Made by a program: the position numbers and the translations under genes. 64,000 bases of DNA from a virus (lineage: Duplodnaviria; Heunggongvirae; Uroviricota; Caudoviricetes), in IMG/VR virus record IMGVR_UViG_3300027673_000001, positions 82,759 through 146,758 of that record; one strand, written 5' to 3'. The notes beneath the pieces were generated by a model that ran no database searches, was not told where the DNA came from, and saw only the letters and a list, made by a program, of their open reading frames with translations. Position 1 is the first letter of the stretch; each line of letters opens with the position of its first letter. Positions 27,829 to 52,959 of the stretch are shown here, piece after piece.

Positions 27829-28611
27829 TTACCTGGTTCCAAATCTATCTTTGTTGCTTTTATCATATGATTCGATAATCTGCTTTAGGGAATCTTTTGG
27901 ACTACCTATCAGTCGATGAGAATAGCCGACGAATGGAACTATCTTATCACTGGTTTGGTTTACGATGATATTGTTTAGGGTATTGAGTTTTTGCACTTCC
28001 CTAATCACATCGTAAATGGAATAGGTGGTTCCGGAACCTATTTCATAAGTTCCTTGAATCCCTGTTAGGGCTGCCTGAGCAATAGCATCTCCCACATCAT
28101 TCACGCTTATGAAATCCAGCCTCGAATGACCAGAGACTTTCAATTCAAAAGATCTACGGGAATAGAAGCTATTGATCAAAGATGGAATGAGACGAGTGTC
28201 TTTATCATCAAACTCCCCCGCCACATTATGAATCCTTAGTATAGCGAAATTTGGGCGAGATTTGACTATATTCTCCATTCCCAGTTTCGTCCAACTGTAG
28301 GGAGATTCTGCTCCCTTAGCAGCAGCAATAGAGGAGATATGGATGAACCTATCACAATTCAATTGTGCCCTAAAGGAACGACACAATTCCTTTGCTTCCG
28401 TGTATTCTTCTAATGAACATCCCGGAGATGCGCCTGGACCGGAAGCGTTGATTATCGTACCATAGTTGCCCAAAGACGGAGGAGACCTATATCCATCGTA
28501 AACACCACCAAATGATGGATCTACTTTGATTATAGGCCTGTCTGTGTATTTCTCCAGACTCCTAACGATTCTCTTGCCAATATAACCATTGGCGCCAAGT
28601 ACAGTTATCAT
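27829..28611 (-). CDS. NAD(P)-dependent epimerase/dehydratase-like (short-chain Rossmann) protein
   Basis: N-terminal GxxGxxG (VLGANGYIGKR) Rossmann motif; 260 aa. Confidence 0.5.
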   Translation of the reverse strand: MITVLGANGYIGKRIVRSLEKYTDRPIIKVDPSFGGVYDGYRSPPSLGNYGTIINASGPGASPGCSLEEYTEAKELCRSFRAQLNCDRFIHISSIAAAKGAESPYSWTKLGMENIVKSRPNFAILRIHNVAGEFDDKDTRLIPSLINSFYSRRSFELKVSGHSRLDFISVNDVGDAIAQAALTGIQGTYEIGSGTTYSIYDVIREVQKLNTLNNIIVNQTSDKIVPFVGYSHRLIGSPKDSLKQIIESYDKSNKDRFGTR

Positions 28612-29225: not shown

Positions 29226-29471
29226 TCAACTGACTTCAGGCCCTTCTATGTTGTACCGACCCCCGCACTTTGAGCAGTATGACCAGCTCCAACCTATTCC
29301 GTTGTCGTGTGAGGAACCAAATCTGTGACCTTCTTCGCTTTCTCCACACTCCCTTTGGAGGGCGAGCTTCGCAGGTAAGTAGACATTCTTGTCATACTGT
29401 TCAGTGGCTTGGCTATGGAACTCACGCCTCTCTTTTTCCAGCTGCCTGTACCTTTCCCATATGGTATTCAT
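29226..29471 (-). CDS. hypothetical Zn-ribbon protein
   Basis: CSKCGGRY motif. Confidence 0.35.
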   Translation of the reverse strand: MNTIWERYRQLEKERREFHSQATEQYDKNVYLPAKLALQRECGESEEGHRFGSSHDNGIGWSWSYCSKCGGRYNIEGPEVS

Positions 29472-29833
29472 TGAGAGACCTTATTCATATTCCTTGGACA
29501 CGAAACAGAACCACAAGCATGGTTAGGTCCTTGCCCACAGGCGGGACAGAGCCAAAAATTTTGCGGTGGTTTTGGCTCCACCGGCTTGAAGGGGTTGATC
29601 TCTGGCCAACGTGGGGGTTTTGGTGCTAGAGGTCCGGAGGGGTTGATTTCTGGCCAACGTGGGGGTTTTGGTGCTAGAGGTCCGGAGGGGTTGATCTCTG
29701 GCCAGCGCGGCGCATTTGGTTGCGTACCTATAGGACCTATAGGAAGGAGATTGTTTTCCAAATACCTGATTCGCCTTGATAGTTCCTCTATCTGCGCTTC
29801 AAGTCTTTTGATGAGTTTTTCTTGATCCTGCAT
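29468..29833 (-). CDS. protein with N-terminal coiled coil, tandem PRWPEINPSGPLAPKP repeats and C-terminal Cys cluster
   Basis: 121 aa; 48-bp tandem DNA repeat x~2.7 at 29583..29720 encodes the peptide repeat; CPACG...CGSVSCP at C-terminus. Confidence 0.45.
   Translation of the reverse strand: MQDQEKLIKRLEAQIEELSRRIRYLENNLLPIGPIGTQPNAPRWPEINPSGPLAPKPPRWPEINPSGPLAPKPPRWPEINPFKPVEPKPPQNFWLCPACGQGPNHACGSVSCPRNMNKVSQ
29583..29720. repeat. 48-bp tandem repeat (~2.7 copies) inside CDS
   Basis: GGGGTTGATCTCTGGCCAACGTGGGGGTTTTGGTGCTAGAGGTCCGGA repeated head-to-tail. Confidence 0.8.
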
Positions 29834-31585: not shown

Positions 31586-32392
31586 TTACTTAGATGGAGC
31601 CATCAGGGCCGTAAAGTTGCTAGGCACTACGATAGTCTGAACTTTGCCGTCTCGGATACCTTCGGAGATGTTGATCATAGCCATGGCTTGCATATACTCC
31701 ACTGCTCCGGAGTTTGCGTTCAGGGCAGCGATGCGTTCAGCCTCAAGCTTCGCGGTTTTAACTTCGACTTCTTTCTTGAGCATCTCATTTTGGCTTCGAA
31801 CCAACTCGTTTGCGCTGTCCACAATCTTACGATCTGGCATGACGTTACGGATTAGAACTTGGCTTACGTTGATGGCACCATCCAGTTTTTCTTCTGCTAG
31901 GGACGCAATCATCTGCTCACGAATCTCGACTTCCATTTGGGCTCGATTGTCGTTCATCTCGAGGCTCTTATACTTTCGGGCACTCTTGTAAGCGGCGTTT
32001 CGAGCTACTTGGTGAATGTAATTATACATCAAGTAGATATCGCCTTCTCGATCTTCAGCCACTGTATGGAACCCTCGGTTCTTTTCAATCCAAATCTCAG
32101 CCACACTCGAAGGGTTGATCGAATAGATAACTGCGAGGTCAAAGTCCTGCAAGGTGCTGTTGTCGGATGCCAGGGGAGTCAAGTTCGAAACATCAACCTG
32201 AACGTCCTTTACTGGGAAGGTGAGTACATCACCGACTACAACCTGATTCCAAGAACCAGGAACAAGTTCATCAGCCTTGACTTGCTTGTCAAAGCCGATT
32301 CGGACACCCACCGTACCAGTTTCAATACGAGTGCAGCCTACGGAGAGGACAGCGGCGGAAAGCAGAGCTACAAAACCAAAACGAATTTTCAC
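31586..32392 (-). CDS. SPFH/band-7 (prohibitin/HflK-like) lipoprotein
   Basis: Lipoprotein signal LSVGC, SPFH-like core followed by coiled-coil; 268 aa. Confidence 0.55.
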   Translation of the reverse strand: MKIRFGFVALLSAAVLSVGCTRIETGTVGVRIGFDKQVKADELVPGSWNQVVVGDVLTFPVKDVQVDVSNLTPLASDNSTLQDFDLAVIYSINPSSVAEIWIEKNRGFHTVAEDREGDIYLMYNYIHQVARNAAYKSARKYKSLEMNDNRAQMEVEIREQMIASLAEEKLDGAINVSQVLIRNVMPDRKIVDSANELVRSQNEMLKKEVEVKTAKLEAERIAALNANSGAVEYMQAMAMINISEGIRDGKVQTIVVPSNFTALMAPSK

Positions 32393-32625: not shown

Positions 32626-33027
32626 CTAGTCCTCGTATAGATGTGGCTTTTGTGAGATTCTCAGGGCAATGCGCTGCCTCACAAGGTTGTCATCATCTTC
32701 GGAGGACTGCCAATCACTGTAGAAAGTAGAGGGAAGACCGTTAAAGGAAACTACTCGCGTCCTGTCTGGCTTATACCCTCGCCTTTCCATCTCATCACAA
32801 AGAGCATTGAACCTCGTTATGAGGAACTTCTGCTTGTCATAGAAGAACTTCACGTGGCCAGAGTTTAGAGTGAACTTACCAGGTATTGATCCTAGTATGG
32901 AGGACTCTGTCTTTGTGCGGAGGGAGCGCCTAAGTGCCGCCGGCACCATGGTAATCTCCCTAAGCTCTGCTATGAGGTGAGCTCGTTTGAGCTCCTTGGG
33001 TGGTATGTTTGAGTTGATTCTCGTCAT
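32626..33027 (-). CDS. denV: endonuclease V, pyrimidine-dimer DNA glycosylase
   Basis: Hand alignment with T4 DenV: MTRIN.., AEYRELP-like, SPTF-LG-GHVTFFYDK-EFL motif (GHVKFFYDKQKFL). Confidence 0.85.
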   Translation of the reverse strand: MTRINSNIPPKELKRAHLIAELREITMVPAALRRSLRTKTESSILGSIPGKFTLNSGHVKFFYDKQKFLITRFNALCDEMERRGYKPDRTRVVSFNGLPSTFYSDWQSSEDDDNLVRQRIALRISQKPHLYED

Positions 33028-33043: not shown

Positions 33044-34117
33044 TCAACGGTTTCTAGTCAACCCATTCAAGAATTCATACATCTTGGTTCCCGTGAAGAA
33101 GTCCCTTAGGTTGGCATCATGAATTTTCTTGGCATTGTAAATGTTGAATGTTGTCATCTTCTCAGTTATGAGATCAGCCAAGTACTCAACATTTGAAGGC
33201 TTCATTTCTGGTTCATACCCATAGGCGACTTCAGAAGGATAGAACGAACCATCAAAGTGCATAACTTCATATGACAGTCTCTTGGGAACCAAAACTTCAC
33301 AGCCAGCTCTCGGCGCTTCTATGCCTATACTGATGCCAAGTGTCTCCTGCATAGAAGCAGAGAACGCTAGCTTGGATCTGTAAAGAAGGTTGTGGTATTC
33401 AAACTTTGTTTCACAGACATCCATTGCCACGATGAACTTGTAAGATGGAAGCCTTTCTGCTAGGGCATAGAACAAGTTCAGGTTCTTCTCTGGGGACTTT
33501 CTGTGGGGGAAAACCACGATGTTCTCTTTCGGCGGAGCATTTTCCAGTTCCCAATAAGGAGTGAACACCTCATCATAGTACTCCATGGGAAACCCCGTGG
33601 ATAAGGTACTGGCTTTGTGAATAGACCAGGAGTAAAGGCGTTCAGAGAAAGGAGTTGCAAAAAGTATCTTGTCATACGCCTTTGCAAAGGTTTCCTCCAT
33701 TGTCCATCCCCATCTCTTGTCTTTTGACTTGTTGGGCAGAAGGTCAGCGGGATCCCAGTAACCAGCGTGAGCAATACCTATGATCTTCACATCAATACCC
33801 ATCAACTCAGCCATGTACTTGGTGTTATTCACAGTTGGGTTCCAGTAGTCCATGTAAAGAAACACGTCTCCAGATTTGACTTCTCCCCTGCTGAACATCT
33901 CTGCAATGAGAGCAGATTGCCGGGACTTGAAGTCGATAGTAGCTGTGAAGTTTAGGAAAGCACCGGGCGTGTTTTCACAAGTTGAGAACAGAACCTCAAC
34001 CGTCTTTACGTTGAAGTTAGGACAGTTCTTGGCGAACAGAGTGGGTACAAATTGATACCAGTGCTTTGTATAGCGAGTCTCAATGGGTTCTATAGGAACT
34101 ATGAAGAGGTTCTGCAT
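33044..34117 (-). CDS. GT-B glycosyltransferase-like protein
   Basis: 357 aa; C-terminal E-x7-E-like motif ETLGISIGIEAPRAGCEVLV of GT1/GT4 enzymes; assignment tentative. Confidence 0.4.
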   Translation of the reverse strand: MQNLFIVPIEPIETRYTKHWYQFVPTLFAKNCPNFNVKTVEVLFSTCENTPGAFLNFTATIDFKSRQSALIAEMFSRGEVKSGDVFLYMDYWNPTVNNTKYMAELMGIDVKIIGIAHAGYWDPADLLPNKSKDKRWGWTMEETFAKAYDKILFATPFSERLYSWSIHKASTLSTGFPMEYYDEVFTPYWELENAPPKENIVVFPHRKSPEKNLNLFYALAERLPSYKFIVAMDVCETKFEYHNLLYRSKLAFSASMQETLGISIGIEAPRAGCEVLVPKRLSYEVMHFDGSFYPSEVAYGYEPEMKPSNVEYLADLITEKMTTFNIYNAKKIHDANLRDFFTGTKMYEFLNGLTRNR

Positions 34118-34510
34118 TTATTCTCCAATGGTGTTTCTGAGGTCCGGCACCCAAGTAATGATGCCATCGGATTCCCCGTCCTCGCTTACCCTAATCGTGT
34201 ATTCTCGCAAAGGCCCATACTTGGAGATCAGATGGGAAAGAATTCCGTCGGCAATCATCTCACATGATTTGTGATTTTGGTTACCGCCCTTAATGAACTC
34301 CTGAAGGTCCCACTTTACAAGGAAGAACTCCAGCTCACGATCGTGGTGGTTCACGGAGATCGTAACCTCAACCTTGAACATATGGCGATGCTCAGATTCA
34401 AGGAACTTGATCCTTGGGTCGATAGTTCCCGCATTGGGGTAGAAGTGAAACCCTTCAAATTCCGTTCTTACGGTGATGAAGGATTTCTTTATGCCTACAT
34501 AATGGTTCAT
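34118..34510 (-). CDS. T-fold (PTPS/QueD-like) protein, second copy
   Basis: 130 aa; His-rich ESEHRHMFKVEV segment resembling Zn-binding site of 6-pyruvoyl-tetrahydropterin synthase family. Confidence 0.35.
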   Translation of the reverse strand: MNHYVGIKKSFITVRTEFEGFHFYPNAGTIDPRIKFLESEHRHMFKVEVTISVNHHDRELEFFLVKWDLQEFIKGGNQNHKSCEMIADGILSHLISKYGPLREYTIRVSEDGESDGIITWVPDLRNTIGE

Positions 34511-35772
34511 CAGAAAAAGTCCTCTAGGTCGGTTGGTTTGCCGCTTTGAACTCTCTTGCTTTTCACCCTTCTGGAGAAGTGTCCTAGCCAGATGTCAAAG
34601 TCGCCTTTGCTCTTCACATTATACAGAGCCTTCGCCGGATTGTAAAATTCAGCATCGATGGCTAGTTGAAGCATATTCTCTCTGCTCTCCATCATCCAGT
34701 CAACGTGCTCAATGTAGTTCATTATTGATTTGACAGTAAAGGCAGTCCTTGCCCTAAGGAAGTCAAAGTCCTCTCCACCCTGATCAATATACTTTGTGTA
34801 CCCTGTGTTCATAATCTTGTGGAACTTATGGGCATCAAGGCCAGCCATGTCGCATATTGTGCTGATGTCCTCAAATGTCGCTTCGTAGAACTTCGACATC
34901 TTTCTATCAAAAGCTACCTGTTTCCTGTTCTTGGTGTAGTAAAGCCCAAGCTCAACACCACTGGTGTGAGTTGTGCTATCGTATGACATAGTTAGAGATT
35001 CGTCATACAGACCAGATTGTTTGAATATCAAGTAGGGTAGCATCCTCTTGGCTGAGCCTACACCCAGGACGTGGAGATGTTTCTTTTCCATTTGCAGTTG
35101 GGAGAATATGAAAGCTCTTTCGATATCTTCCAACGTGCCTGTACCAAGAGCAGCAGCACCCATAGCCACTGCCGTAACCTCTCCCTTATCTTCATAGGGG
35201 ATTTGTTCAAGGACAATGTCAACCCACTTCATGTAAGTGTCATAACAGTTTCCTTGAGCGATAAGAATAGGCTTGCACTCGGACTTTTGCTCTCTATAGA
35301 CGTGAATCTGCCTGGCGATGTTCTTCCCGGTGAGCTTGGCGTAATGTTCCATCTCGTCGGGTTTGAACCAACGATTAGTCACATCGTTCCTGCCAGACGT
35401 CTTACCCTGAGTGCCGATTGGTATTTCATCAAAGCACATACCAAAGTCTGCAGAAGCGCATTGGTTCCTATAGATATCGTCCTTGATTTCGTCCGTTACA
35501 GCCTTGCCTTGAGTGATAATCTGAAGACCACCACTGTCAGCATGAATGCTATGGTACCCATCTAGTTTCCTAAACCTCGGACCAAAGGATTGCTCAGTGA
35601 ATCCATTGAATAACAAACCAAACTCATGGTTAGGCGAGGATTTTGCAATCTTCGACAGAAGTTCAGAGATGAATGGCCCATTAACGGGGTCACCGGCATT
35701 GCGTGGCGAATGAAGCCTCATGTAGCTAGTACCTGAGGCGATGTATTCTATTTTCTTATCCGAAGAAAGCAT
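34510..35772 (-). CDS. dpdA: DpdA / tRNA-guanine transglycosylase-family DNA transglycosylase
   Basis: 420 aa with TGT-family DSGG(F/L)Q motif (HADSGGLQII); sits in cluster with FolE/QueD/QueE. Confidence 0.6.
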   Translation of the reverse strand: MLSSDKKIEYIASGTSYMRLHSPRNAGDPVNGPFISELLSKIAKSSPNHEFGLLFNGFTEQSFGPRFRKLDGYHSIHADSGGLQIITQGKAVTDEIKDDIYRNQCASADFGMCFDEIPIGTQGKTSGRNDVTNRWFKPDEMEHYAKLTGKNIARQIHVYREQKSECKPILIAQGNCYDTYMKWVDIVLEQIPYEDKGEVTAVAMGAAALGTGTLEDIERAFIFSQLQMEKKHLHVLGVGSAKRMLPYLIFKQSGLYDESLTMSYDSTTHTSGVELGLYYTKNRKQVAFDRKMSKFYEATFEDISTICDMAGLDAHKFHKIMNTGYTKYIDQGGEDFDFLRARTAFTVKSIMNYIEHVDWMMESRENMLQLAIDAEFYNPAKALYNVKSKGDFDIWLGHFSRRVKSKRVQSGKPTDLEDFF

Positions 35773-37123
35773 CTAAGTTGTCCTCTTCTTCCTTTACTAC
35801 CATCTCTTCGGATTTGGTAAGGAAGGTTCTTGTTAGTGTTTGGAAATTGTTGAACTTCTTCCTGTTGCCATAGATTGATATCAAGTCCTCAGTAGATGCA
35901 AACCTACCCAGCGTCTTATCAATGAAAGCATCAACAAAGAAGTCGTCTTGCTCGTTGATTTTAGCGGAAGAAGAGTTGGACGTCAACCCATGGGGCTGTT
36001 CAATGAAGTCTCTCCACATCAGATCAGAAGCCGAGTCAAGAGACCTAACATATTTGATCCCCTTCTCCGTTCCTTCTTCTGAGTAGTGTAGGTTCCTCAA
36101 CCTAAGACCTACTTTAGAAGAACCAACCCTTTCAATGCTCAACAAATCTGTTTTGAAGTTGTAGACCCAGTCGTAATCCTCCACAACGCAATGGCAATGA
36201 CACAGGGCTTCCATCAGAGCAAAACCAAAGCTCTCGGACTTTGACGGCATATAGAATACCTTCGCCGATTTGATGAAGTTGACCTTATCTTCGCCTATGA
36301 TACTCTTCTTGATTACGAAGTTCTCGATGCCTTCTTTCTTGAACTCCTCTTCGAACTTCTTGGCTCCGTTCTCATTAGTCATGACCTTAGCCATTAGACC
36401 AGAGTCCTTGATTGCCTTCACAAACGCCTTGGGGTTTTTTCTTTCCTCCCATCTTCCGATGAACAGGCAACCTTCTTTCTTTAAACCGTCTGAGGAATCC
36501 AATAGACTTCTTTCAGGGATAGGCATTGGCAACCACGCTGTTCTAGTGAGACCTGCTTCCTTTAGCTCCGCATTGTTCCTGGAAGACTGAGTACCAACAA
36601 AGATACCTGGGAGTCTCATGAAGGACTCAATCATTGGATCATAGTTGTCATTGAACACACCCTTGAATGTGTTGTTTCTGAAAACCAAGTTCTCGTTGTG
36701 GGTATAAAAGACTATCTTGATGTAGTCCTGTATCCCCAAAGCATAGGTTGAGAAAAGGGCCTCGGGCGTATTGATTACCAGAGCGTCATACAAAGAAGAC
36801 TGCATTGCCTTCATTAGTGAATCTCTGAACTTCATCACTTTCTCAAAGTTCAGAGATTCACTGAAAGAATGAATCTTTTGGTGAGCCACAAAGTCGTTGG
36901 AAGGAGGGACTAAGCTCTTGAAGTTTACATTTGGGATAGACTTCAAGTAACCCACAAACTCAGAGGCGCCGGGCAAAGGTGGCGCATCCATGATTATGTC
37001 TACTACCCAATCCAACCTCCCAGCCATCTCAACAAACCCCTTGGCGAACTGTCCGATTCCGCCATGGGGTATGAGATGTTGAGAAGAGATCAGGAATCCG
37101 ATTCTCTTCTTAAAGACTTTCAT
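35756..37123 (-). CDS. GT-B (GT1/GT4 family) glycosyltransferase
   Basis: 455 aa; classic motif SESFGFALMEA (E-x7-E). Confidence 0.6.
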   Translation of the reverse strand: MKVFKKRIGFLISSQHLIPHGGIGQFAKGFVEMAGRLDWVVDIIMDAPPLPGASEFVGYLKSIPNVNFKSLVPPSNDFVAHQKIHSFSESLNFEKVMKFRDSLMKAMQSSLYDALVINTPEALFSTYALGIQDYIKIVFYTHNENLVFRNNTFKGVFNDNYDPMIESFMRLPGIFVGTQSSRNNAELKEAGLTRTAWLPMPIPERSLLDSSDGLKKEGCLFIGRWEERKNPKAFVKAIKDSGLMAKVMTNENGAKKFEEEFKKEGIENFVIKKSIIGEDKVNFIKSAKVFYMPSKSESFGFALMEALCHCHCVVEDYDWVYNFKTDLLSIERVGSSKVGLRLRNLHYSEEGTEKGIKYVRSLDSASDLMWRDFIEQPHGLTSNSSSAKINEQDDFFVDAFIDKTLGRFASTEDLISIYGNRKKFNNFQTLTRTFLTKSEEMVVKEEEDNLDAFFG

Positions 37124-37789
37124 TTAGCCTCGCACCAAGTCCATGAATTCCTTACGCAGGGCAGGATCATTCTTGAATCCACCACCAAGTTTGGAAGTGA
37201 TTGTATAGGAGGAAGTGTCCTCCACGCCACGTTGTGCTACGCAGTAATGCTTACCACGAACAACAATAGCGATGTTGTCTGTCTCAAGGATACACTCGAG
37301 GGCATAGAAGAGCTGCTCAGCATAGCGTTCCTGAATCTGGGGACGTTGTGCGAAGAACTTGGCGATACGGTTCAGCTTGCTTAGACCCAATACCTTGTGC
37401 TTGGGAATGTAGGCGATGGACACCTTCTGGTCGATGGTAACGAAGTGATGTTCGCAGGAACTGATTGCGATGATGTCCTTTTCGACAACCATCTCATCGT
37501 AGTTCATCTTGTTATCAACTGTCGTGCACTTGGGGAAGTTGGCGTAGTCAAGACCTTGGAAGATCTCATTGACGTACATCTTTGCTACACGCTTTGGTGT
37601 ATCGACCAGGGAGTCATCCTGCAGGTCGAGACCAAGTACTTCCATGATAGCCGTGAAGTAATTCTCGATATAGGAGATCTTATGATCCTTTGGCATATCG
37701 CTATAGGCGTTCTTGACTACAGGAGTCTCTACGCCCTTGGCGATCAGGTAGGCGTTTACTTTTTCTCCGAGCTTTGCATCTGTTTTCAT
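37124..37789 (-). CDS. folE: GTP cyclohydrolase I
   Basis: SSCEHHF and KHYCVAQRG motifs, 221 aa. Confidence 0.8.
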   Translation of the reverse strand: MKTDAKLGEKVNAYLIAKGVETPVVKNAYSDMPKDHKISYIENYFTAIMEVLGLDLQDDSLVDTPKRVAKMYVNEIFQGLDYANFPKCTTVDNKMNYDEMVVEKDIIAISSCEHHFVTIDQKVSIAYIPKHKVLGLSKLNRIAKFFAQRPQIQERYAEQLFYALECILETDNIAIVVRGKHYCVAQRGVEDTSSYTITSKLGGGFKNDPALRKEFMDLVRG

Positions 37790-37824
37790 ATTTGTTCCTT
37801 GTTGTGGTGATTGTTTATTTAGGT

Positions 37825-38337
37825 TCAGTCAAAAAGGTTCTCGTTCCACTCACGATGACCTTCCCTGAATGCCATGTTTGCCTGAGTCTCGCGGACTTCA
37901 ACTTTGTAGCACCACAGGCGTTGTGCTTCTCCAGGACCCCACATATCAGGGATGTAGACTCCATTGACGTATTTGTAGAGCATATCAGCCAGGGACTCAC
38001 AACCCAGTCTAGGCAGGACAACAATCTTTGCCATACCCTTCTGCTCTAGAAGTTTGAATGTCTCCATCTCTGGGTCATCTTGTGCTACGATAAGAGTGTG
38101 ATCGAACTGAGATTCCAGGACCTTCTTCAGTTCCTTCAACCCGCCGTAGTCCGCCACCCAGTTGCGAACATCAAGGTCGTTCGTGCCGAAGTAGAACTTC
38201 ATGCTAAACGCATAACCATGGATAGTGTTGCAGTGGCTGTCCGCTCTCCACTGGCGATAGGCGCAGGGGAAGGCATCGACGTACTCCTTGGTACTGGTGT
38301 ATTTGTAAGTGATTGGTTGGTTCATTATGTATTCCAT
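37825..38337 (-). CDS. queD: 6-carboxy-5,6,7,8-tetrahydropterin synthase QueD
   Basis: CxxxHG(H/Y) motif HCNTIHGYAF; 170 aa. Confidence 0.65.
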   Translation of the reverse strand: MEYIMNQPITYKYTSTKEYVDAFPCAYRQWRADSHCNTIHGYAFSMKFYFGTNDLDVRNWVADYGGLKELKKVLESQFDHTLIVAQDDPEMETFKLLEQKGMAKIVVLPRLGCESLADMLYKYVNGVYIPDMWGPGEAQRLWCYKVEVRETQANMAFREGHREWNENLFD

Positions 38338-39194
38338 TCGTTACCGTAGATAATGCACTGGAGCCTAGGAGAGAACCTAAATCCATACTTCATTGCCAAG
38401 TCTGCCACCTTACGTTGGTTCTTGGCGTAAGCTTCGTTCGTCCCGCCTTCGGGCATCAGGTAAACACTGACGCGGTCAAAAGGTATGTTCTCATAACCAG
38501 TCATCATAACATCGATGACTTCAAGAACAGATTCCTCGTCGTCCACTACGAACTTCAGGTCAACTTCACCCACTTTCAGATAGCTCTCGATTGCTTCTGG
38601 CTTGATGGCGTCCTCGATGCTTTCCCCAGAAGCCATGAGCTTTGGAGAAACGCTAAAGTGCATGTTTGCTTTTGTCTTATCAAAAACGTTTTCTCCTAGA
38701 ATCTGAGTGCCGTTAGTCTCGACAGTGATATATAGACTCTCAGCCAAACCCCTATCGTGAATCTGGTCGATCAATTCAGAATATGCTTTTTGCCATCCAG
38801 GGAGTAGAGGTTCTCCGCCTGTCAGTATCAGATGAAAGTCACGACTGAATACCTTAACATCCAAGAGCTCTTCAATTTTGTCTGTGATCTCATATACAGA
38901 CATCATGGGGCTAAAGTCCTTGAACTCAGGATAGACCGCCGCGTAAGTGTCACACCCAGTATTAACCAAGGGAAGTTCAGTAAACTTCTTACCCCTGTAC
39001 TTTTCAATATCGTTGATGATTTGTTGAACTTCAGGGTTTGGACCGTCAAACTTTGTTCCGTGAGTCAAGCCAAAGGACTTGCACCGAAAGTTACAACCAA
39101 AGCTCCTGAGAAAGATAGAAGGCACTCCTGCGTACCTACCTTCGCCTTGAATTGAGGAGAACAGCTCCGAGACTTTAATCTTTGCCTTTGACAT
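38325..39194 (-). CDS. queE: 7-carboxy-7-deazaguanine synthase QueE (radical SAM)
   Basis: Cx3Cx2C-like cluster FLRSFGCNFRCKSFGLTHG near N-terminus; 289 aa. Confidence 0.65.
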   Translation of the reverse strand: MSKAKIKVSELFSSIQGEGRYAGVPSIFLRSFGCNFRCKSFGLTHGTKFDGPNPEVQQIINDIEKYRGKKFTELPLVNTGCDTYAAVYPEFKDFSPMMSVYEITDKIEELLDVKVFSRDFHLILTGGEPLLPGWQKAYSELIDQIHDRGLAESLYITVETNGTQILGENVFDKTKANMHFSVSPKLMASGESIEDAIKPEAIESYLKVGEVDLKFVVDDEESVLEVIDVMMTGYENIPFDRVSVYLMPEGGTNEAYAKNQRKVADLAMKYGFRFSPRLQCIIYGNEWNT

Positions 39195-39301
39195 AGGGCT
39201 CCTTGTCTAAAAATATGTCTATGTGAGTATTATATAGGTTCATTTGCATTTCGTCTATTCATGGTTGAAGTCCCCGAAGGGACTTGAACTGTATTGAGTG
39301 C

Positions 39302-39514
39302 TTAGACCCAATAAGTTTCGCCGAAGTGTTGGTTATATTGTTTCTCAAAAGCTTCGGAGAACTCCTCCACTGCTTGACGGGTAACAACCAAACGCTCGTT
39401 CATTCGGTGGAACTTCTTATAGGCAAACTCCGGTCCGCCGATCAGTTCGTTTTCGCTATCGTAAATGCCCTTGAGTTGTTGGAGCTCGGCGGGGTTGAAT
39501 TTGTATTCGATCAT
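39302..39514 (-). CDS. hypothetical protein
   Basis: 70-aa ORF. Confidence 0.35.
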   Translation of the reverse strand: MIEYKFNPAELQQLKGIYDSENELIGGPEFAYKKFHRMNERLVVTRQAVEEFSEAFEKQYNQHFGETYWV

Positions 39515-39537
39515 CTTCGTTTCCTTTTGGTTAGTGC

Positions 39538-40434
39538 TTACTTGCAGGTCAGGTACTCGGCGTGCTCTGCCCAGGTGCCATCTTCGTCAGCTGCCCGAAC
39601 TTTTGCTACGGTGATCAGGGTGCGGAGGTTAACTTCGCTCATCTTCTCCTTGTTGTTGTCAATGAACTTCAGGGCGTCCTTCTTGATCGACATATCGAAC
39701 ATGGGCAGGAACTCATCTTCTTTGATCATAACCGCCATGCGGTCAACCACTTCCTGCAGAGTCATCGACAGGTCGATCACTGCGCTACGGCTACGGATAG
39801 CCTGGTCAATCTTGTCTTCGCTCATGTTGGAGATGAACACCACGCGACCAGTAAAGATAAACGAGCGAGGCAGATCTTCGTCACGCATATCTGCGTTCCA
39901 GGAAATAATGCGAGTGTCATAGGAATCCAGGGCGCCTTTGAGCAAGTTCAGTGCAACGGGATCCTTCAGAACGCTGTCGCAGTCGTCGAACACAATCACA
40001 GTATCGTTGTTCTCGAACAGGGTGCGATACAGACCCTTGGCAGTGCTGTAGCCCTTAACGATCACGAAGCTACGGGCCCGACGGATGTTAGAGCCTTCTT
40101 CGCTCTCTGCTACGATAGTGGAAATGTCCTTCAGACCACTTTCAATGAGTGCCTTCTTCACGGAGAAGGACTTGCCAAGACCGCCACTGCCAGAAACTAC
40201 AGCGGAAGCCTGGAGACCTTTGGCGACCATCTTGACAGTCTTGTTCAGGAACTCGAAGCGCTTGTTGACATGGAAGCGGTTCTCCGTCTTTTCGATGGAC
40301 ACTGCAGCCTTACCAACAGTCTTTGCGAAGAAGTTTTCTGCGTGCATCTTCAGGTTTGCGCGCTTGACCATCTCGCCATTGATGTAAACTTCAAAACGCT
40401 TACCTGCTGCATATACACCGTGTTTCATCTTCAA
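39538..40434 (-). CDS. P-loop AAA-type ATPase
   Basis: Walker A GSGGLGKS, Walker B VIVFDDCD; antisense 306-aa + ORF rejected. Confidence 0.55.
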   Translation of the reverse strand: MKMKHGVYAAGKRFEVYINGEMVKRANLKMHAENFFAKTVGKAAVSIEKTENRFHVNKRFEFLNKTVKMVAKGLQASAVVSGSGGLGKSFSVKKALIESGLKDISTIVAESEEGSNIRRARSFVIVKGYSTAKGLYRTLFENNDTVIVFDDCDSVLKDPVALNLLKGALDSYDTRIISWNADMRDEDLPRSFIFTGRVVFISNMSEDKIDQAIRSRSAVIDLSMTLQEVVDRMAVMIKEDEFLPMFDMSIKKDALKFIDNNKEKMSEVNLRTLITVAKVRAADEDGTWAEHAEYLTCK

Positions 40435-40582: not shown

Positions 40583-40996
40583 TCAAGGGTGAAGAACCTC
40601 TCCAGCAAAGACCTGGAATCGGTCACGCATCTCTTGCATTTTATTCTCAGGTACGTTATGAATGCTACCAAAGTGGCTAGTCATCCTGAAGACCTTCAAG
40701 GCGTGGTTGTTTTCCCGACAATAGTCAACATATGGTTTCATTTCCTTGAAAGTGGTAAAGGTATTAGAAACCACAACCAACTTACCAGCATCAAGGGATT
40801 CCGTAACACTGACGAAGCACTTGGAGTGAGCATAGTGAAGCCTCGAGGCTAGAAACTCATACTCACCTTTATCGTTTACCATGAACTGGTCAGCCTCAAA
40901 GTGAGCAGAATTTTCAACATCACGGAGAATATGCTTCGCTAAGGTAGACTTGCCGGACCCAGGCAACCCCCTGATAATGATAAGACCTTTTTCCAT
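40583..40996 (-). CDS. P-loop polynucleotide-kinase-like NTPase
   Basis: Walker A GLPGSGKSTLAK at N-terminus, 137 aa; resembles kinase module of Pnkp enzymes. Confidence 0.5.
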   Translation of the reverse strand: MEKGLIIIRGLPGSGKSTLAKHILRDVENSAHFEADQFMVNDKGEYEFLASRLHYAHSKCFVSVTESLDAGKLVVVSNTFTTFKEMKPYVDYCRENNHALKVFRMTSHFGSIHNVPENKMQEMRDRFQVFAGEVLHP

Positions 40997-44161: not shown

Positions 44162-44365
44162 ATGTCAAGGTTCGTCGTCCTCAAAGGTTCTGAACTCATC
44201 ATCTCTGAAACCATAGAAGAACTCCCAGACGACTTTGATCACCTTATAGAGTTTGCTCCAGACTACCCAGAAGGTCCTCATACTCATGAGCAACATGAGG
44301 AGATGGAGTCATGGAACGACAAACTTCAAAAACTTTTGGAGAAGGAACGTGCCCGCAGTCACTAG
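44162..44365 (+). CDS. hypothetical acidic protein
   Basis: 67-aa + strand ORF in a 3-gene + island. Confidence 0.4.
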   Translation: MSRFVVLKGSELIISETIEELPDDFDHLIEFAPDYPEGPHTHEQHEEMESWNDKLQKLLEKERARSH

Positions 44366-44639
44366 AATAGGCGATGCCGACGTTCCCCATTGTTCAGGTA
44401 TGGTTAGGGCTCAAGGAAGCCCCGACGTTTTTGCCAATAACATACCGATCTCCAGACAGTCGGACTTAAACACCACTCACTTACTTCCTGGTGTTCCGTG
44501 CCCGCCTCATGCAGCGCCGATTACGACAGGAAGCTCAACGGTTTTTATAAATGGGCTAGGTTGTGGGAGAATTGGAGATGCCATCACTGGTTGCACATCG
44601 GTGGCAGCCGGTTCCCATAACGTGTTCGCAGGGGGTTAA
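44286..44639 (+). CDS. PAAR-repeat protein (gp5.4-like spike tip)
   Basis: PAAR-domain pattern RIGDADVPHCSG ... PCPPHAAPITTGSSTVFINGLGCGRIGDAITGC; start uncertain (44286 overlapping upstream ORF or ATG at 44400). Confidence 0.55.
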   Translation: MSNMRRWSHGTTNFKNFWRRNVPAVTRIGDADVPHCSGMVRAQGSPDVFANNIPISRQSDLNTTHLLPGVPCPPHAAPITTGSSTVFINGLGCGRIGDAITGCTSVAAGSHNVFAGG

Positions 44640-50295: not shown

Positions 50296-50370
50296 TGGTA
50301 GCGGAGTCCTGGAATCGAACCAGGGACCTGGAGCTTATGAGACTCCCGAGATACCACTTCTCCAACCCGC
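50296..50370 (-). tRNA. tRNA-Met/Ile2 (anticodon CAT)
   Basis: Hand-folded cloverleaf; T-arm GGTTCGATTCC, anticodon loop CTCATAA, 3' CCA encoded. Confidence 0.55.
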
Positions 50371-50376
50371 AACATT

Positions 50377-50452
50377 TGGCGCGCCCAGAAGGATTCAAAC
50401 CTCCGACCCACTGCTTAGGACGCAGCTGCTCTATTCACTGAGCTATGGACGC
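50377..50452 (-). tRNA. tRNA-Arg (anticodon CCT by hand fold)
   Basis: Perfect acceptor GCGTCCA/TGGGCGC, D-arm GCTCAGTGAATAGAGC, loop GTCCTAA. Confidence 0.5.
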
Positions 50453-50459
50453 ATTATAT

Positions 50460-50534
50460 TGGCCTGCCCGGCAGGAATCGAACCCACATTCACGGTGTAG
50501 AAGACCGCTGTATTATCCGTTATACGACGGGCAG
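50460..50534 (-). tRNA. tRNA-Arg (TCT)
   Basis: Acceptor CTGCCCG/CGGGCAG, loop CTTCTAC. Confidence 0.6.
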
Positions 50535-50535
50535 A

Positions 50536-50682
50536 TTATCCTAGTTCACGTTCCTCCATAATGGAGTTCCAAATCTGTTCTACAAAGGAGACAGGTACTC
50601 CGTACTTTTCTGAGATTTCAACATTAGAAGAAACTCCCAGTTCGAGCTCTTCCTTAATATCAAAAACCAGTTCCTTCAACAT
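50536..50682 (-). CDS. small early protein (48 aa)
   Basis: ATG 50682 with TAGGAG RBS after promoter-like element at ~50700-50745; stop abuts tRNA cluster. Confidence 0.3.
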   Translation of the reverse strand: MLKELVFDIKEELELGVSSNVEISEKYGVPVSFVEQIWNSIMEERELG

Positions 50683-50738
50683 ACCATCTCCTAACTGTCT
50701 ATGTATCTATTATAGCACAGTCACGAATAAAAATCTAG

Positions 50739-50815
50739 TGGTGCCCCTTGACAGATTCGAACTGTCACTACAGAGGTTTTGAATCTCTCGCCTCTTCCAA
50801 TTGGGCTAAAGGGGC
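50739..50815 (-). tRNA. tRNA, class I body with anticodon CAA (hand fold; identity uncertain)
   Basis: Acceptor GCCCCTT/AAGGGGC, T-arm GACAGTTCGAATCTGTC, loop TTCAAAA, 5-nt variable loop. Confidence 0.45.
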
Positions 50816-50816
50816 T

Positions 50817-50905
50817 TGGAGGAGAGCGACGGTATCGAACCGTATCCGATTTCTCGAACCACTCGCTTTCCAAGCGAGGGCAATCACCATCATGCATCAC
50901 TCTCC
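50817..50905 (-). tRNA. tRNA-Ser (GGA)
   Basis: Class II, acceptor GGAGAGT/GCTCTCC, loop TTGGAAA, long variable arm. Confidence 0.6.
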
Positions 50906-50906
50906 G

Positions 50907-51179
50907 TTACCAGTTTCTTGGTAGCTTTGCCTTATGGCTAGTATCAACGAGCCAAGCAGTATCAACAAATCCATGTGTGGGTTCCATGGTCTCGGTAAAC
51001 AATTCATAGATCATACTAGCTACAGGCTCAGGAAATCCTTTCCTGCTGTCCCTTCTCTCGTCCATCAACAAGGTGGACAAATAGTTGTTCAAGGCATCCT
51101 TGTTTGACCAAAGGAAGTCTATCCTATCCCTAACGTGGGGATAAGACTCTAAGATGTGAAGGACGTGTTCTTTTTTCAT
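50907..51179 (-). CDS. hypothetical protein embedded in tRNA cluster
   Basis: Internal ATG (51179) used so that it does not overlap tRNA at 51192..51268. Confidence 0.35.
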   Translation of the reverse strand: MKKEHVLHILESYPHVRDRIDFLWSNKDALNNYLSTLLMDERRDSRKGFPEPVASMIYELFTETMEPTHGFVDTAWLVDTSHKAKLPRNW

Positions 51180-51191
51180 CTTGTATGTATG

Positions 51192-51268
51192 TGGTGCGCC
51201 GGGAGGGATTCGAACCCTCACTCGATGGCTTCTAAGGCCATTGCCTCTGCCAATTGGGCTACCAGCGC
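51192..51268 (-). tRNA. tRNA, class I body with anticodon TAG (hand fold; identity uncertain)
   Basis: Acceptor GCGCTGG/CCGGCGC, anticodon stem ATGGC/GCCAT, loop CTTAGAA. Confidence 0.45.
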
Positions 51269-51276
51269 ATTATTCC

Positions 51277-51351
51277 TGGTGGTGATAGTTGGTAACGATC
51301 CAACCTTCTCGGCTTATGAAACCGGCCTACATCCTTCTATAGCATATCACC
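51277..51351 (-). tRNA. tRNA (CAT), third CAU-anticodon tRNA
   Basis: Acceptor GGTGATA/TATCACC, T-arm GTTGGATCGTTACCAAC, loop TTCATAA. Confidence 0.45.
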
Positions 51352-51356
51352 GAAGT

Positions 51357-51431
51357 TGGGCAGACGTTACGGATACGATCCGTTCCTACGAGTGTCACAG
51401 ACTCGGGTGCTTCCACTACACTAAACGCTGC
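51357..51431 (-). tRNA. tRNA-His (GTG)
   Basis: Loop CTGTGAC, D-arm GTGTAGTGGAAGCAC, extra 5' G opposite discriminator C; acceptor has one bulge. Confidence 0.45.
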
Positions 51432-51436
51432 ATAAA

Positions 51437-51511
51437 TGGCATACCAGGAAGGATTCGAACCCTCACTGCAAGGTTTTGGAGACCTGCCGACTGCCGTTGT
51501 CTTACTGGTAT
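51437..51511 (-). tRNA. tRNA-Trp (CCA)
   Basis: Acceptor ATACCAG/CTGGTAT, loop CTCCAAA. Confidence 0.6.
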
Positions 51512-51517
51512 ATAATT

Positions 51518-51593
51518 TGGAGTACGCGGCAGGAGTCAAACCTGCTTGAAGTGGATTTGCAATCCACCGCCTAAGTCGTTCAGCCACGCGCAC
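51518..51593 (-). tRNA. tRNA-Cys (GCA)
   Basis: Anticodon stem GTGGA/TCCAC, loop TTGCAAA. Confidence 0.6.
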
Positions 51594-51647
51594 AAAATGT
51601 TGCACACCACTTATCCTATTATACACCGTGTGCAATGGTGAGTTTCT

Positions 51648-51723
51648 TGGCCCCGCCCTCTGGTAACGATCCAGACCCTCAGCGTTTTCAGCGCCGCGCT
51701 TCCACCTGGTTAGCTTGAGCGGG
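51648..51723 (-). tRNA. tRNA-Phe (GAA)
   Basis: Acceptor CCCGCTC/GGGCGGG, loop CTGAAAA, T-loop ATCGTTA variant. Confidence 0.55.
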
Positions 51724-51730
51724 ATATACT

Positions 51731-51805
51731 TGGTGCGCCCGGAGGGAATTGAACCCCCACTCGATCGATTATGAGTCGACTGCTTTACCATTAAGCTACA
51801 AGCGC
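51731..51805 (-). tRNA. tRNA-Met (CAT)
   Basis: Acceptor GCGCTTG/CGGGCGC, loop CTCATAA. Confidence 0.55.
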
Positions 51806-51812
51806 ATCAATT

Positions 51813-51890
51813 TGGTGGGATCGACGAGATTCGAACTCGTAGTCTGTTGACTCTCATTCAACAAGGTATGCCAATTCCCTTCACGATCCC
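51813..51890 (-). tRNA. tRNA, anticodon GAG by hand fold (identity uncertain)
   Basis: Acceptor GGGATCG/CGATCCC, T-arm ACGAGTTCGAATCTCGT, stem GTTGA/TCAAC loop ATGAGAG. Confidence 0.4.
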
Positions 51891-51896
51891 AAATTT

Positions 51897-51978
51897 CCTA
51901 TATTGAAACACACAGTACAACGTGCGCCCTCTCAGGTCTTAAACAGCGTCCCGTACACGCCTATGCGTTTCAATATAG
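51897..51978. repeat. hairpin element H1 (conserved inverted-repeat termini, variable core)
   Basis: CCTATATTGAAACACACAG ... CTATGCGTTTCAATATAG. Confidence 0.6.
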
Positions 51979-52120
51979 CGACCCATTGTGGGCAGGACTC
52001 GAACCTGCAAGTGGCGTCTATTTCCACCGGCCCTATTAGGGACCTATGTTTACCGTTTCCATCACCACGGGTCATCGGGTTAATTACTCCCGACTACGGA
52101 GACTGATGATCAGTCAATCA

Positions 52121-52208
52121 CCATATAGAAACACACTGACCTCGGAATGACTTATGAGAATACGCGGAGTTCCGATTTAGCGTCTTTCACCAGTGTGTTT
52201 GTATATGG
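52121..52208. repeat. hairpin element H2
   Basis: CCATATAGAAACACACTG ... CAGTGTGTTTGTATATGG. Confidence 0.7.
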
Positions 52209-52324
52209 TATCACCTTTTCCCATACCTTGCGGAGTATATTCGGTATGAGCATCTAGCCGCTCTCACATTACTGTGAGCCTCCCGCTTGACACTTTGATG
52301 ATGCAAAGCCTCTTGGAAACACTA

Positions 52325-52413
52325 CCATATAGAAACACACTCAAACTGGTCTGTTCTCCTACCCCCGTACAGCCGTTCCAGACAGGAGCAAGGTAGAGTG
52401 CGTTTTTATATGG
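52325..52413. repeat. hairpin element H3
   Basis: CCATATAGAAACACACTC ... GAGTGCGTTTTTATATGG. Confidence 0.7.
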
Positions 52414-52516
52414 AATGGTACGCCATCTCACAGCCGACACAAAGAGCCCCACTACTCAACAACTCTGCCGTTACCTAGGTGGGCAGTTTTCCGAGGGTAG
52501 TTTCGTTTGCGTTATA

Positions 52517-52605
52517 CCATATAGAAACACACTAGCCAATACAGATTGATTACTGCGATTGTTCAAATGCCACTCAAATTCGGCAACTAGTGTATTTGTA
52601 TATGG
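52517..52605. repeat. hairpin element H4 (terminal TGG = CCA of tRNA-Lys)
   Basis: CCATATAGAAACACACTAG ... CTAGTGTATTTGTATATGG. Confidence 0.7.
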
Positions 52606-52677
52606 TAGGGGTGGAGAATTTCGAAATCTCGACTCACCGGGTAAAAGCCGGTTACTCTGCCTCTGAGTTACACCCCC
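52603..52677 (-). tRNA. tRNA-Lys (TTT)
   Basis: D-arm GCTCAGAGGCAGAGT, stem ACCGG/CCGGT, loop CTTTTAC; 3' CCA lies inside hairpin element. Confidence 0.6.
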
Positions 52678-52682
52678 AAATA

Positions 52683-52759
52683 TGGTCCCTCGCCTCAGAT
52701 TCGAACTGAGACCTCACGGATTAAGAGTCCGGTACGCTAACCATTAACGCCAGCGAGGG
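52683..52759 (-). tRNA. tRNA (anticodon CTT by hand fold, Lys?)
   Basis: Perfect acceptor CCCTCGC/GCGAGGG, T-arm CTCAGTTCGAATCTGAG, loop CTCTTAA. Confidence 0.45.
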
Positions 52760-52866
52760 AAAGCTCAAGTAAAGATTGTCTTTAGAGTGCTTTCCGGGAC
52801 CATACTTGGGTGGTTCAGGAAAACACTGGTTGTTTACCAGGTTTCATTTCTTTCTCCGTTAAAATT

Positions 52867-52941
52867 TGGTGCCCCTTGACGGAATCGAACCGCCACCCCT
52901 GGATTACAAAACCAGTCCACTGCCATTATGATTAAAAGGGC
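52867..52941 (-). tRNA. tRNA-Thr (TGT)
   Basis: Acceptor GCCCTTT/AAGGGGC, loop TTTGTAA. Confidence 0.55.
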
Positions 52942-52959
52942 TTGTCTTTGTAAGTATCT

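Follow-up and report, generated by a model that had tools for sequence, protein, structure and literature searches.

A predicted QueC-less 7-deazaguanine DNA-modification cluster of the DpdL type, with two embedded glycosyltransferases, in a T4-type phage contig

The stretch of 64,000 nucleotides analyzed here (positions 82,759 to 146,758 of IMG/VR record IMGVR_UViG_3300027673_000001, a tailed phage; hereafter the window) carries a compact cluster of 7-deazaguanine genes in which two glycosyltransferases are embedded. The reading favored, at a probability of roughly 55%, is that the phage modifies its own DNA with 7-deazaguanine by a route independent of QueC, with the two glycosyltransferases as tailoring enzymes. 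The parts of this reading differ in strength: that the cluster is a deazaguanine DNA module of the DpdL type is highly probable, the glycosyltransferases likely belong to it functionally, and a sugar on the final product is proposed tentatively. 7-Deazaguanine DNA modifications are a main counter-defence of phages, and the eight derivatives known to us from DNA include none with a sugar. The window covers 64 kb of a 162,874-bp contig, and the negative results for QueC and hydroxymethylase genes given below refer to these 64 kb.

Organization of the gene cluster

Seven open reading frames (ORFs) on the minus strand, between 33044 and 39194, encoded in order QueE, QueD, FolE, GT455, DpdA, DpdL and GT357. 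The spacing between consecutive frames ranged from -17 to +35 nt (abutting or overlapping), which indicates a single operon.

38325-39194, minus strand: QueE, 7-carboxy-7-deazaguanine synthase, radical SAM family, first gene of the operon (phrog_2076, 2.6e-47)
37825-38337, minus strand: QueD, 6-carboxytetrahydropterin synthase (Pfam PTPS, 3.4e-16; phrog_2389, 2.4e-36; motif CNTIHGY)
37124-37789, minus strand: FolE, GTP cyclohydrolase I (GTP_cyclohydroI, 3.7e-56; NCBIfam FolE equivalog, 2.4e-91, above cut-off)
35756-37123, minus strand: GT455, GT4-family glycosyltransferase of 455 aa (Glycos_transf_1, 6.3e-11, 42.6 bits against a cut-off of 26.4)
34510-35772, minus strand: DpdA2-like guanine transglycosylase of 420 aa, predicted tRNA-guanine transglycosylase (TGT) fold (DSGGLQ, residues 79-84; GVGS, 237-240; YDSTTH, 264-269)
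34118-34510, minus strand: DpdL, 130 aa, QueD paralogue without the catalytic Cys (LESEHRHMF, residues 37-45; phrog_17812, 1.2e-23)
33044-34117, minus strand: GT357, GT-B/GT4-like glycosyltransferase of 357 aa (invariant E258 and E267, an E-x8-E variant)

A preliminary description of this DNA had placed the ORFs of the block on the minus strand at these coordinates, and had read them as a 7-deazaguanine module with a Tgt-family enzyme, FolE, QueD, QueE and two GT-B enzymes; both were borne out, the latter by profiles and structure models. QueE matched Radical_SAM under the Pfam cut-off, its NCBIfam QueE matches were partial and all under cut-off, and it was 44.5% identical to QueE of Synechococcus phage BUCT-ZZ01. 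QueD was 53% identical to that of Acidovorax phage ACP17. Scans of the block for sigma-70 promoters and terminators stayed at chance level (10 found against 10.9 expected), and one promoter-like site lay upstream of QueE (39257-39229).

DpdL and the QueC-less core

Judged by motif and homology, the 130-aa protein is DpdL, the QueD paralogue in which LxxxHRHxF replaces CxxxHGH (Cui et al. 2023, PMC10516641). The preliminary description had recognized a second PTPS-like T-fold protein, rightly as to the paralogy, and had missed its identity. No Pfam or NCBIfam match was obtained for DpdL, while tblastn gave identities of 31.6% to DpdL of phage phiST (E 4e-10), 42% to that of ACP17 and 68% to that of BUCT-ZZ01. 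The LxxxHRHxF motif was conserved in BUCT-ZZ01, ACP17, X1, phiST, Phosso and one marine locus, with HFH in PAC2. Compared with the QueD of the window, the DpdL profile reached an hhalign probability of only 60% (E 9e-5), and its search of the PDB returned only 2dj6, non-significantly (E 0.3); when phiST DpdL was compared with PF01242 by HHpred, the value published was 99.89% (PMC10516641). Relatives of DpdL occurred in at least 595 IMG/VR contigs.

Phages with DpdL have FolE, QueD, QueE and a DpdA but lack QueC, and the role proposed for DpdL is the decarboxylation of 7-carboxy-7-deazaguanine (CDG) to 7-deazaguanine (PMC10516641). The window displayed the same surroundings, with FolE, QueD, QueE and DpdA present and QueC not found. 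In phiST DNA, every G is replaced by 2'-deoxy-7-deazaguanine (dDG), with no 2'-deoxy-CDG (dCDG) present. The presence of DpdL thus points to a QueC-less core of the published kind and makes dDG, not dCDG, the default prediction. The dCDG-type chemistry first guessed for this cluster is not the best prediction, since DpdL marks the published QueC-less dDG route (PMC10516641).

The absence of a visible QueC from the window, as first described, held in all searches: the SGGxDS motif was missing from every frame, no ORF of at least 95 aa matched Pfam QueC, and tblastn with the QueC proteins of Escherichia coli and Pseudomonas phage pf16 gave no match. The same two probes found no QueC in the entire 156-kb genome of BUCT-ZZ01, the closest isolate, and none was found in 240 sampled viral loci retrieved through GT357, the window-type DpdA or DpdL. 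The QueC-like protein of phage Moby was discarded as a probe, being so divergent that it matched almost only its own genus. In Moby itself (locus L005, 5505-7986), a DpdA2-like gene is kept and this divergent QueC-like protein stands in place of DpdL and GT357; Moby-type relatives also carry an inositol-3-phosphate synthase in the cluster.

The transglycosylase

The 420-aa protein had been proposed as a Tgt/DpdA enzyme. Profiles stayed silent, with no Pfam or NCBIfam match and no PDB sequence match even to a profile built with five phage homologues, but the fold and the homology to DpdA2 supported the proposal. An AlphaFold2 model from 36 homologues had a mean predicted local distance difference test score (pLDDT) of 92.8, and its top 50 Foldseek matches in the PDB were all tRNA-guanine transglycosylases (E ~2.5e-8, template modeling (TM) score 0.5-0.58). 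D79-S-G-G-L-Q84, G237-V-G-S and Y264-D-S were invariant or near-invariant across the 36 homologues, and by motif position the aspartates of DSGGxQ and YDS would correspond to Asp102 and Asp280 of TGT.

By tblastn, the enzyme was 53% identical to a hypothetical protein of BUCT-ZZ01 and 29-33% identical to proteins of Xanthomonas phages X1/BUDD, ACP17 (31%), Stenotrophomonas Menderavirus and pf16. Against DpdA2 of the KVP40 group, identity was 35% over residues 8-270 (63% of the protein; E ~4e-40). The KVP40-group proteins form the DpdA2 subfamily, of which two members, those of VH7D and nt-1, were shown in E. coli to place deazaguanines in DNA (PMC6884629; PMC10516641). An identity as DpdA3 was rejected, the hhalign probability against phiST DpdA3 being 7%, and the 96.6% probability obtained against a family of TGT-like proteins of 485-540 aa reflects distant kinship. 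The enzyme is therefore placed, on sequence grounds, nearer to nt-1/KVP40-type DpdA2 than to DpdA3 or the 540-aa family, the two other groups compared. By analogy with DpdA2 of VH7D and nt-1, it would exchange guanine in DNA.

Genes for this type of DpdA were found in at least 398 IMG/VR contigs. Here and below, counts out of 80 refer to the best 80 IMG/VR loci of each family scan. Around the window-type DpdA, the usual order was QueE, a small phosphoribosyltransferase (PRTase), FolE, DpdA, DpdL, GT357 and QueD, and DpdL and GT357 occurred together in 63 loci, most of the others being cut by contig ends. Relative to this usual cassette, the window lacks the PRTase and adds GT455.

Glycosyltransferases of the cluster

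GT357 had no Pfam or NCBIfam match of its own, and several of its homologues, as well as the BUCT-ZZ01 orthologue, pass PF00534. In these sequence features it resembles GT4 enzymes only in part, as these combine a Glycos_transf_1 match above the cut-off with an EX7E motif, whereas GT357 shows E-x8-E spacing and no Pfam match. Its AlphaFold2 model (pLDDT 94.2) displayed a GT-B fold of two Rossmann domains, which Foldseek matched in the PDB to BshA, MshA, sucrose-phosphate synthase, GlgM and PglA (E 1e-10 to 1e-9), with the pterin glucosyltransferase BGluT at rank 31. Among viral models, an ACP17 protein was the sole close match (TM 0.86-0.89), and a cyanophage 'DNA alpha-GT' came only at rank 25 (TM ~0.5). 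The alpha- and beta-glucosyltransferases of phage T4 were not among the top 50 PDB fold matches of GT357, and neither glycosyltransferase of the window matched their families in Pfam or PHROG at E <= 0.01. The two enzymes are thus not canonical glucosyltransferases for glucosylated hydroxymethylcytosine (glucosyl-hmC), an identity that the preliminary description had left for checking.

Relatives of GT357 were found in at least 589 IMG/VR contigs by an alignment-based scan, which was needed as a single-sequence scan gave no match. The best 80 GT357 loci contained DpdL, close to GT357, in 78 cases, a TGT-like gene in 70, FolE in 59, QueE in 53 and QueC in none. Conversely, a GT357-family gene was present in 50 of the 62 DpdL-found loci with room for one, always on the same strand and ~200-280 bp downstream of DpdL. 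Among isolates, GT357 adjoins DpdL in ACP17 (where it lies between dpdA and dpdL), X1/BUDD, BUCT-ZZ01, PA5oct-like jumbo phages and Sinorhizobium phage Phosso, and the two genes are ~3 kb apart in Burkholderia phage BCSR5. No GT357 gene was found in phiST, Moby or pf16. GT357 thus almost never stands in a locus that has no DpdL, and some DpdL loci have no GT357, as expected of a tailoring enzyme acting after DpdL, and phiST, with proven plain dDG, DpdL and no GT357, shows the pattern expected if that enzyme is optional. No gene fusions among GT357, GT455, DpdL and DpdA were seen in ~400 loci.

GT455 carries the EX7E motif (E297 and E305, in ESFGFALME) and a conserved C-terminal extension of ~140 aa, belongs to a family of ~1280 proteins, and is 43% identical to the BUCT-ZZ01 product encoded at the equivalent position. 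In loci found through GT455, QueE lay within 10 kb in 76 of 80, mostly directly upstream, with QueD in 63 and FolE in 52. A GalE-like gene, homologous to the UDP-glucose 4-epimerase of BUCT-ZZ01, was located directly downstream of GT455 in 70 of these loci; the BUCT-ZZ01 epimerase itself (108831-109847) lies ~40 kb from its cassette. GT455 rarely stood beside the window-type DpdA (2 of 80 loci, plus BUCT-ZZ01 and a 216-kb contig with identical gene order). A supercluster of TGT-like gene, DpdL, GT357, FolE, QueD, in some cases PRTase, QueE, GT455 and GalE-like gene was recurrent, and in one marine locus a phosphomannomutase and a GDP-mannose-dehydratase-like short-chain dehydrogenase/reductase (SDR) adjoined the TGT-like gene. 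Sugars as part of the pathway, an earlier suggestion, are strongly supported by this synteny (GT357 with DpdL, GT455 with QueE).

The PRTase (Pfam Pribosyltran) was encoded between QueE and FolE in 56 of the 80 window-type DpdA loci, and is exemplified by BUCT-ZZ01 (locus L001, 8742-9203) and a PA5oct-like locus (L007, 11333-11767); none was found in the window. It could serve the salvage of guanine freed by base exchange or, by analogy with tubercidin, the synthesis of deazapurine nucleotides.

Distribution among phages and bacteria

The full order QueE, QueD, FolE, GT455, DpdA, DpdL, GT357 was identical in BUCT-ZZ01 and the 216-kb IMG/VR contig (L094). The TGT-like protein of 485-540 aa, which has the motif ADSGGFQ and matches nothing in Pfam, served as transglycosylase in the majority of marine and PA5oct-like clusters. 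Members of this family are encoded in the PA5oct-like phage PAC2 (locus L007, 7382-9004), in locus L036 (6659-8116) and in bacterial loci L342-L382.

Bacterial chromosomes harbored the genes as well. GT357 loci were found in alphaproteobacterial isolates, among others, including Magnetospirillum, Methylobacterium, Sulfitobacter, Pelagibacterium and Devosia; the 485-540-aa TGT-like gene adjoined GT357 in 40 of 79 bacterial loci and DpdL did so in 31, and most loci were without FolE and QueE. Examples of the module with its neighbors are Magnetospirillum aberrantis (locus L360, 2250-11088) and Sulfitobacter (locus L373, 2089-13507), and in roseobacters a GT455 homologue was encoded on the strand opposite to the GT357 module. 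Neighboring genes encoded HEPN_LA2681, a CoiA-like nuclease-domain protein, an nSTAND3 NTPase and histidine kinases. The HEPN, CoiA-like nuclease and nSTAND neighbors suggest that cells employ the same chemistry for modification or restriction, and the bacterial GT357/DpdL/TGT-like islands have the look of defence islands or of a system akin to restriction-modification.

Comparison with known systems

The DpdL systems of phiST and ACP17 share with the window FolE, QueD, QueE, DpdL with its LxxxHRHxF motif, a DpdA and the lack of QueC, and ACP17 shares the GT357 homologue in addition. The phiST cluster differs by a 259-aa DpdA3 without significant similarity to the window enzyme, by MazG and a small ATPase, and by having no glycosyltransferase. 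The KVP40-like vibriophages (nt-1, VH7D) are T4-type phages with a transglycosylase of the same lineage (35% identity), and FolE is encoded upstream of the transglycosylase gene in both KVP40 (directly adjacent) and the window (with GT455 in between). These vibriophages differ in having QueC, QueF-like, Gat or ArcS proteins, with which dPreQ0, dPreQ1, mdPreQ1 or dG+ are made, and in lacking DpdL and glycosyltransferases (PMC6884629, PMC10516641).

PA5oct-like jumbo phages (Wroclawvirus) resemble the window by GT357 (35% identity), DpdL and QueE clustered with a TGT-like gene, but their transglycosylase is the distant 540-aa TGT relative, GT455 is absent, and a PRTase is present together with an SDR fragment. 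PA5oct DNA resists restriction at G-containing sites, by a modification of unsolved structure (PMC12191111). The bacterial Dpd system (dPreQ0/dADG) likewise relies on a TGT-family enzyme to insert a deazaguanine into DNA, and the GT357/DpdL/TGT-like trio is also located in bacterial chromosomes, beside nuclease and defence-type genes. Dpd differs by its use of preQ0 with DpdA, DpdB and DpdC, without DpdL or a glycosyltransferase.

Glucosyl-hmC of T4 is alike in that a non-canonical base would be the target of a phage-encoded GT-B enzyme. Phages T2 and T6 carry a disaccharide on the base, and the two glycosyltransferases of the window could likewise build one. The T4 enzymes have no sequence or specific structural similarity to those of the window, in which no hydroxymethylase was detected, and they are tied to pyrimidine modification whereas the window enzymes are tied to purine (deazaguanine) genes.

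A chemical precedent is found in actinomycete secondary metabolism, where FolE, QueD and QueE likewise occur with one or more glycosyltransferases acting on a 7-deazapurine base: HuiG glycosylates the base in huimycin (N2-GlcNAc), and dapiramicin bears a disaccharide (PMC7439116). CDG is also the starting compound of the tubercidin pathway, which has a PRTase and a decarboxylase but no QueC. The huimycin, dapiramicin and tubercidin clusters differ from that of the window in having no TGT or DpdA, and huimycin needs QueC.

Proposed pathway and its alternatives

In the proposed pathway, FolE, QueD and QueE, whose family activities are established, would convert GTP to CDG, and DpdL would convert CDG to 7-deazaguanine, as the published proposal has it. 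The DpdA2-like enzyme of TGT fold would swap guanine in DNA for the deazaguanine base. GT357, coupled to DpdL, and GT455, coupled to QueE, would attach one sugar or two to the deazaguanine, acting on the base while it is still free or once it is part of DNA. Candidate attachment sites are C7, N2 (the site used in huimycin) and a carboxyl ester. Conserved synteny alone makes this the most likely assignment of the sugar-addition step. The pairing of GT357 with a base-binding T-fold protein, rather than with DpdA, slightly favors glycosylation of the base prior to its insertion, for which a substituent linked at C7 would have the geometry that TGT-family pockets tolerate; glycosylation of DNA is equally conceivable. 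A 7-deazaguanine in DNA that carries sugar, with GT357 acting on the DpdL product and GT455 extending it, is put forward as a specific but tentative product, to which we give somewhat less than even odds.

Several points weigh against this pathway. 7-Deazaguanine has no hydroxyl group, we know of no glycosylated purine in natural DNA, and the attachment chemistry is conjectural. The evidence for the role of the glycosyltransferases is guilt by association throughout. The nearest solved structures to GT357 use small-molecule acceptors, no indication of DNA binding was seen, and phiST reaches full dDG replacement without a homologue of GT357 or GT455. Clusters elsewhere come with PRTase and GalE-like genes that the window does not have, and the ~99 kb of the contig outside the window could carry a QueC or a pyrimidine hydroxylase. 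The DpdA2 enzymes tested so far modify less than 0.1% of G. Finally, decarboxylation by DpdL is a proposal, and dpdL with dpdA from phiST or ACP17 yielded no dDG in E. coli (PMC10516641).

One alternative is a plain dDG system as in phiST, in which the glycosyltransferases would serve another target (another DNA base, a component of the virion or of the host surface) or only a structural or helper role. This alternative is unlikely; in its favor are the full replacement of G by dDG in phiST without GT357 or GT455 homologues, the 12 of 62 DpdL loci without GT357, the lack of an evident acceptor group on 7-deazaguanine and the fold neighbors of GT357, which are generic GT4 enzymes. On the other side, GT357 and GT455 were almost never apart from deazaguanine genes in the sampled viral loci (78 and 76 of 80), both lie within the operon with abutting or overlapping frames, and the GT357/DpdL/TGT-like trio is kept in bacterial islands without other phage genes. 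A thymidylate-synthase-type hydroxylase or hydroxymethylase, furthermore, was not found among the ORFs of the window.

Two other alternatives are both improbable. In one, the pathway would end at CDG, DpdA would insert this base to give dCDG, a glycosyltransferase might esterify the carboxyl group, and DpdL would not be a decarboxylase. The carboxylate is a possible glycosyl acceptor, the decarboxylase role of DpdL is a proposal, and DpdA2 of VH7D put CDG into plasmid DNA in a queC-deleted host at 52-95 per 10^6 nt (PMC10516641). However, the DpdL motif and the homology to the phiST protein are clear, the DNA of phiST has dDG and no dCDG, and dCDG is known only at trace level, from an archaeal virus without this gene set.

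In the other, a glycosylated or ribosylated 7-deazapurine resembling huimycin, dapiramicin or tubercidin would be made as a nucleotide or small molecule and used pre-replicatively or as an effector, in place of base exchange after replication with subsequent glycosylation. The PRTase in 56 of 80 window-type DpdA loci, in BUCT-ZZ01 and in PA5oct-like phages is in line with such a route, as is the tubercidin pathway, which combines CDG, a PRTase and a decarboxylase without QueC. So are the partnership of GT357 with a base-binding T-fold protein instead of DpdA and the small-molecule acceptors of its fold neighbors, the pterin glucosyltransferase included. The window, however, yielded no PRTase, and the virion DNA of PA5oct is itself modified at G. 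A TGT-like enzyme was moreover present in nearly all loci (70 of 80 found through GT357, 80 of 80 through the window-type DpdA), which argues for insertion of the base into nucleic acid.

Least probable is a modification of tRNA, with the TGT-fold enzyme targeting the phage's own GUN-anticodon tRNAs: the window has 32 tRNAs, including Asp-GTC, Asn-GTT (x2), His-GTG and Tyr-GTA, and the fold matches tRNA-guanine transglycosylases, but the nearest named relatives are DpdA2 enzymes, proven DNA modifiers, the module occurs in BUCT-ZZ01, ACP17 and bacterial islands without such tRNA arrays nearby, and the C-terminal helical domain shows no Cys-rich Zn motif when its sequence is read by eye.

Genomic context of the cluster

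Pfam matches revealed T4-type phage genes in the window, namely a baseplate protein, gp32, RNase H, a SegE-like endonuclease, ribonucleotide reductase, DNA ligase and PhoH. The gp32 protein was 45-53% identical to those of cyanomyoviruses and of Pelagibacter phage HTVC008M, and by its gene content and gp32 the phage is a T4-type phage of cyanomyovirus/pelagimyovirus-like affinity. When the 7.4-kb block was compared with 50,697 phage records by megablast, no match was obtained; this phage has no close sequenced relative. The preliminary description had also called it T4-like, which holds, and had presumed that such a genome normally relies on glucosyl-hmC. The window encodes ThyX and dCMP deaminase and, as noted, no detectable hydroxymethylase, so the comparison with T4 glucosyl-hmC is an analogy only. 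The following genes lie around the operon.

27829-28611, minus strand: short extended SDR resembling NDP-sugar epimerases/dehydratases, 4.4 kb downstream of the operon (Pfam Epimerase, 4.4e-13; GANGYIG, YSWTK)
32626-33027: DenV (T4 endonuclease V), after the GT357 gene
39538-40434, minus strand: P-loop ORF of 298 aa (phrog_1250, function unknown; weak AAA match)
40583-40996, minus strand: P-loop kinase-like protein of 137 aa, just upstream of ThyX (weak PNK and adenylyl-sulfate-kinase matches)

Weak homologues of the SDR (22-30% identity) were present in 34 of 80 GT357 loci, ~5 kb upstream of GT357, and none was found in loci with the window-type DpdA; it is a possible accessory gene with a weak link to the cluster. 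The 298-aa P-loop ORF, which lies upstream of the operon together with a 70-aa ORF, has a homologue in Xanthomonas phage X1, ~3 kb downstream of QueE and on the opposite strand. No homologue of either ORF was found in ~320 sampled viral loci, and they are therefore regarded as neighbors, not shown members of the module; the ATPase had initially been counted as part of it, a view this absence does not support. The 137-aa kinase and the 298-aa ATPase had no similarity to the ATPase of the phiST cluster and no conservation with the module.

The tRNA array (50300-56165, minus strand, 32 genes) covers most amino acids and holds all four GUN-anticodon types. One prediction is irregular (51984-52071, 'tRNA-???', with a two-base anticodon), and several mechanically called ORFs within the array are probably spurious. 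The SegE-like GIY-YIG endonuclease (61570-61974, minus strand; Pfam 2.7e-33) is followed by a second GIY-YIG-looking ORF (62254-62949, plus strand) and by an ORF (62952-63983, minus strand) whose match to the large subunit of ribonucleotide reductase is confined to the C-terminal part of that protein, an arrangement that may represent a homing-endonuclease insertion or a split nrdA. Elsewhere, a 121-aa ORF (29468-29833, minus strand) contains a proline-rich unit (PRWPEINPSGPLAPKP) three times in tandem with a Cys-rich C-terminal tail. Pfam matches also indicated a cupin/Asp-Arg-hydroxylase-like protein (6426-6956, minus strand), a PAAR-motif protein (44253-44639, plus strand) and an SPFH/Band-7 protein with a lipoprotein-like N-terminus (31586-32392, minus strand).

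Novelty and biological meaning

The literature searched showed no glycosyltransferase in deazaguanine DNA systems; this covers the main text of Cui et al. 2023 (PMC10516641), which mentions none, but neither that paper's supplementary tables nor Iyer et al. 2013 (PMC3763556). Judged by the searchable literature, the two embedded, cluster-specific glycosyltransferases thus appear not to have been described before. The pathway had at first been called possibly undescribed, which does not apply to the QueC-less core, known as the DpdL/dDG route, but does appear to apply to the glycosyltransferases. The product of this variant may be a hypermodified purine of a new class.

Both glycosyltransferase families, in many cases accompanied by sugar-nucleotide enzymes, are integral to the DpdL branch that lacks QueC. 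This is so for hundreds of phage contigs from the environment, for several cultured phages (ACP17, X1/BUDD, BUCT-ZZ01, the PA5oct group, Phosso and BCSR5) and for bacterial chromosomes. The finding bears on three problems: the modified G of PA5oct, the real activity of DpdL, and the missing parts of the dDG pathway. If the proposed pathway is true, the modified G of PA5oct would be explained, and the failure of dpdL with dpdA from ACP17 to produce dDG might be explained as well, yet phiST, without such a glycosyltransferase, failed likewise. As a purine that bears a sugar, the product would be without precedent in natural genomes. The system is widespread in aquatic T4-like phages and PA5oct-like jumbo phages and may mark self DNA in alphaproteobacterial islands; such a purine would have consequences for the evasion of restriction and CRISPR, for nucleases that depend on modification and for artefacts in the sequencing of aquatic viromes.

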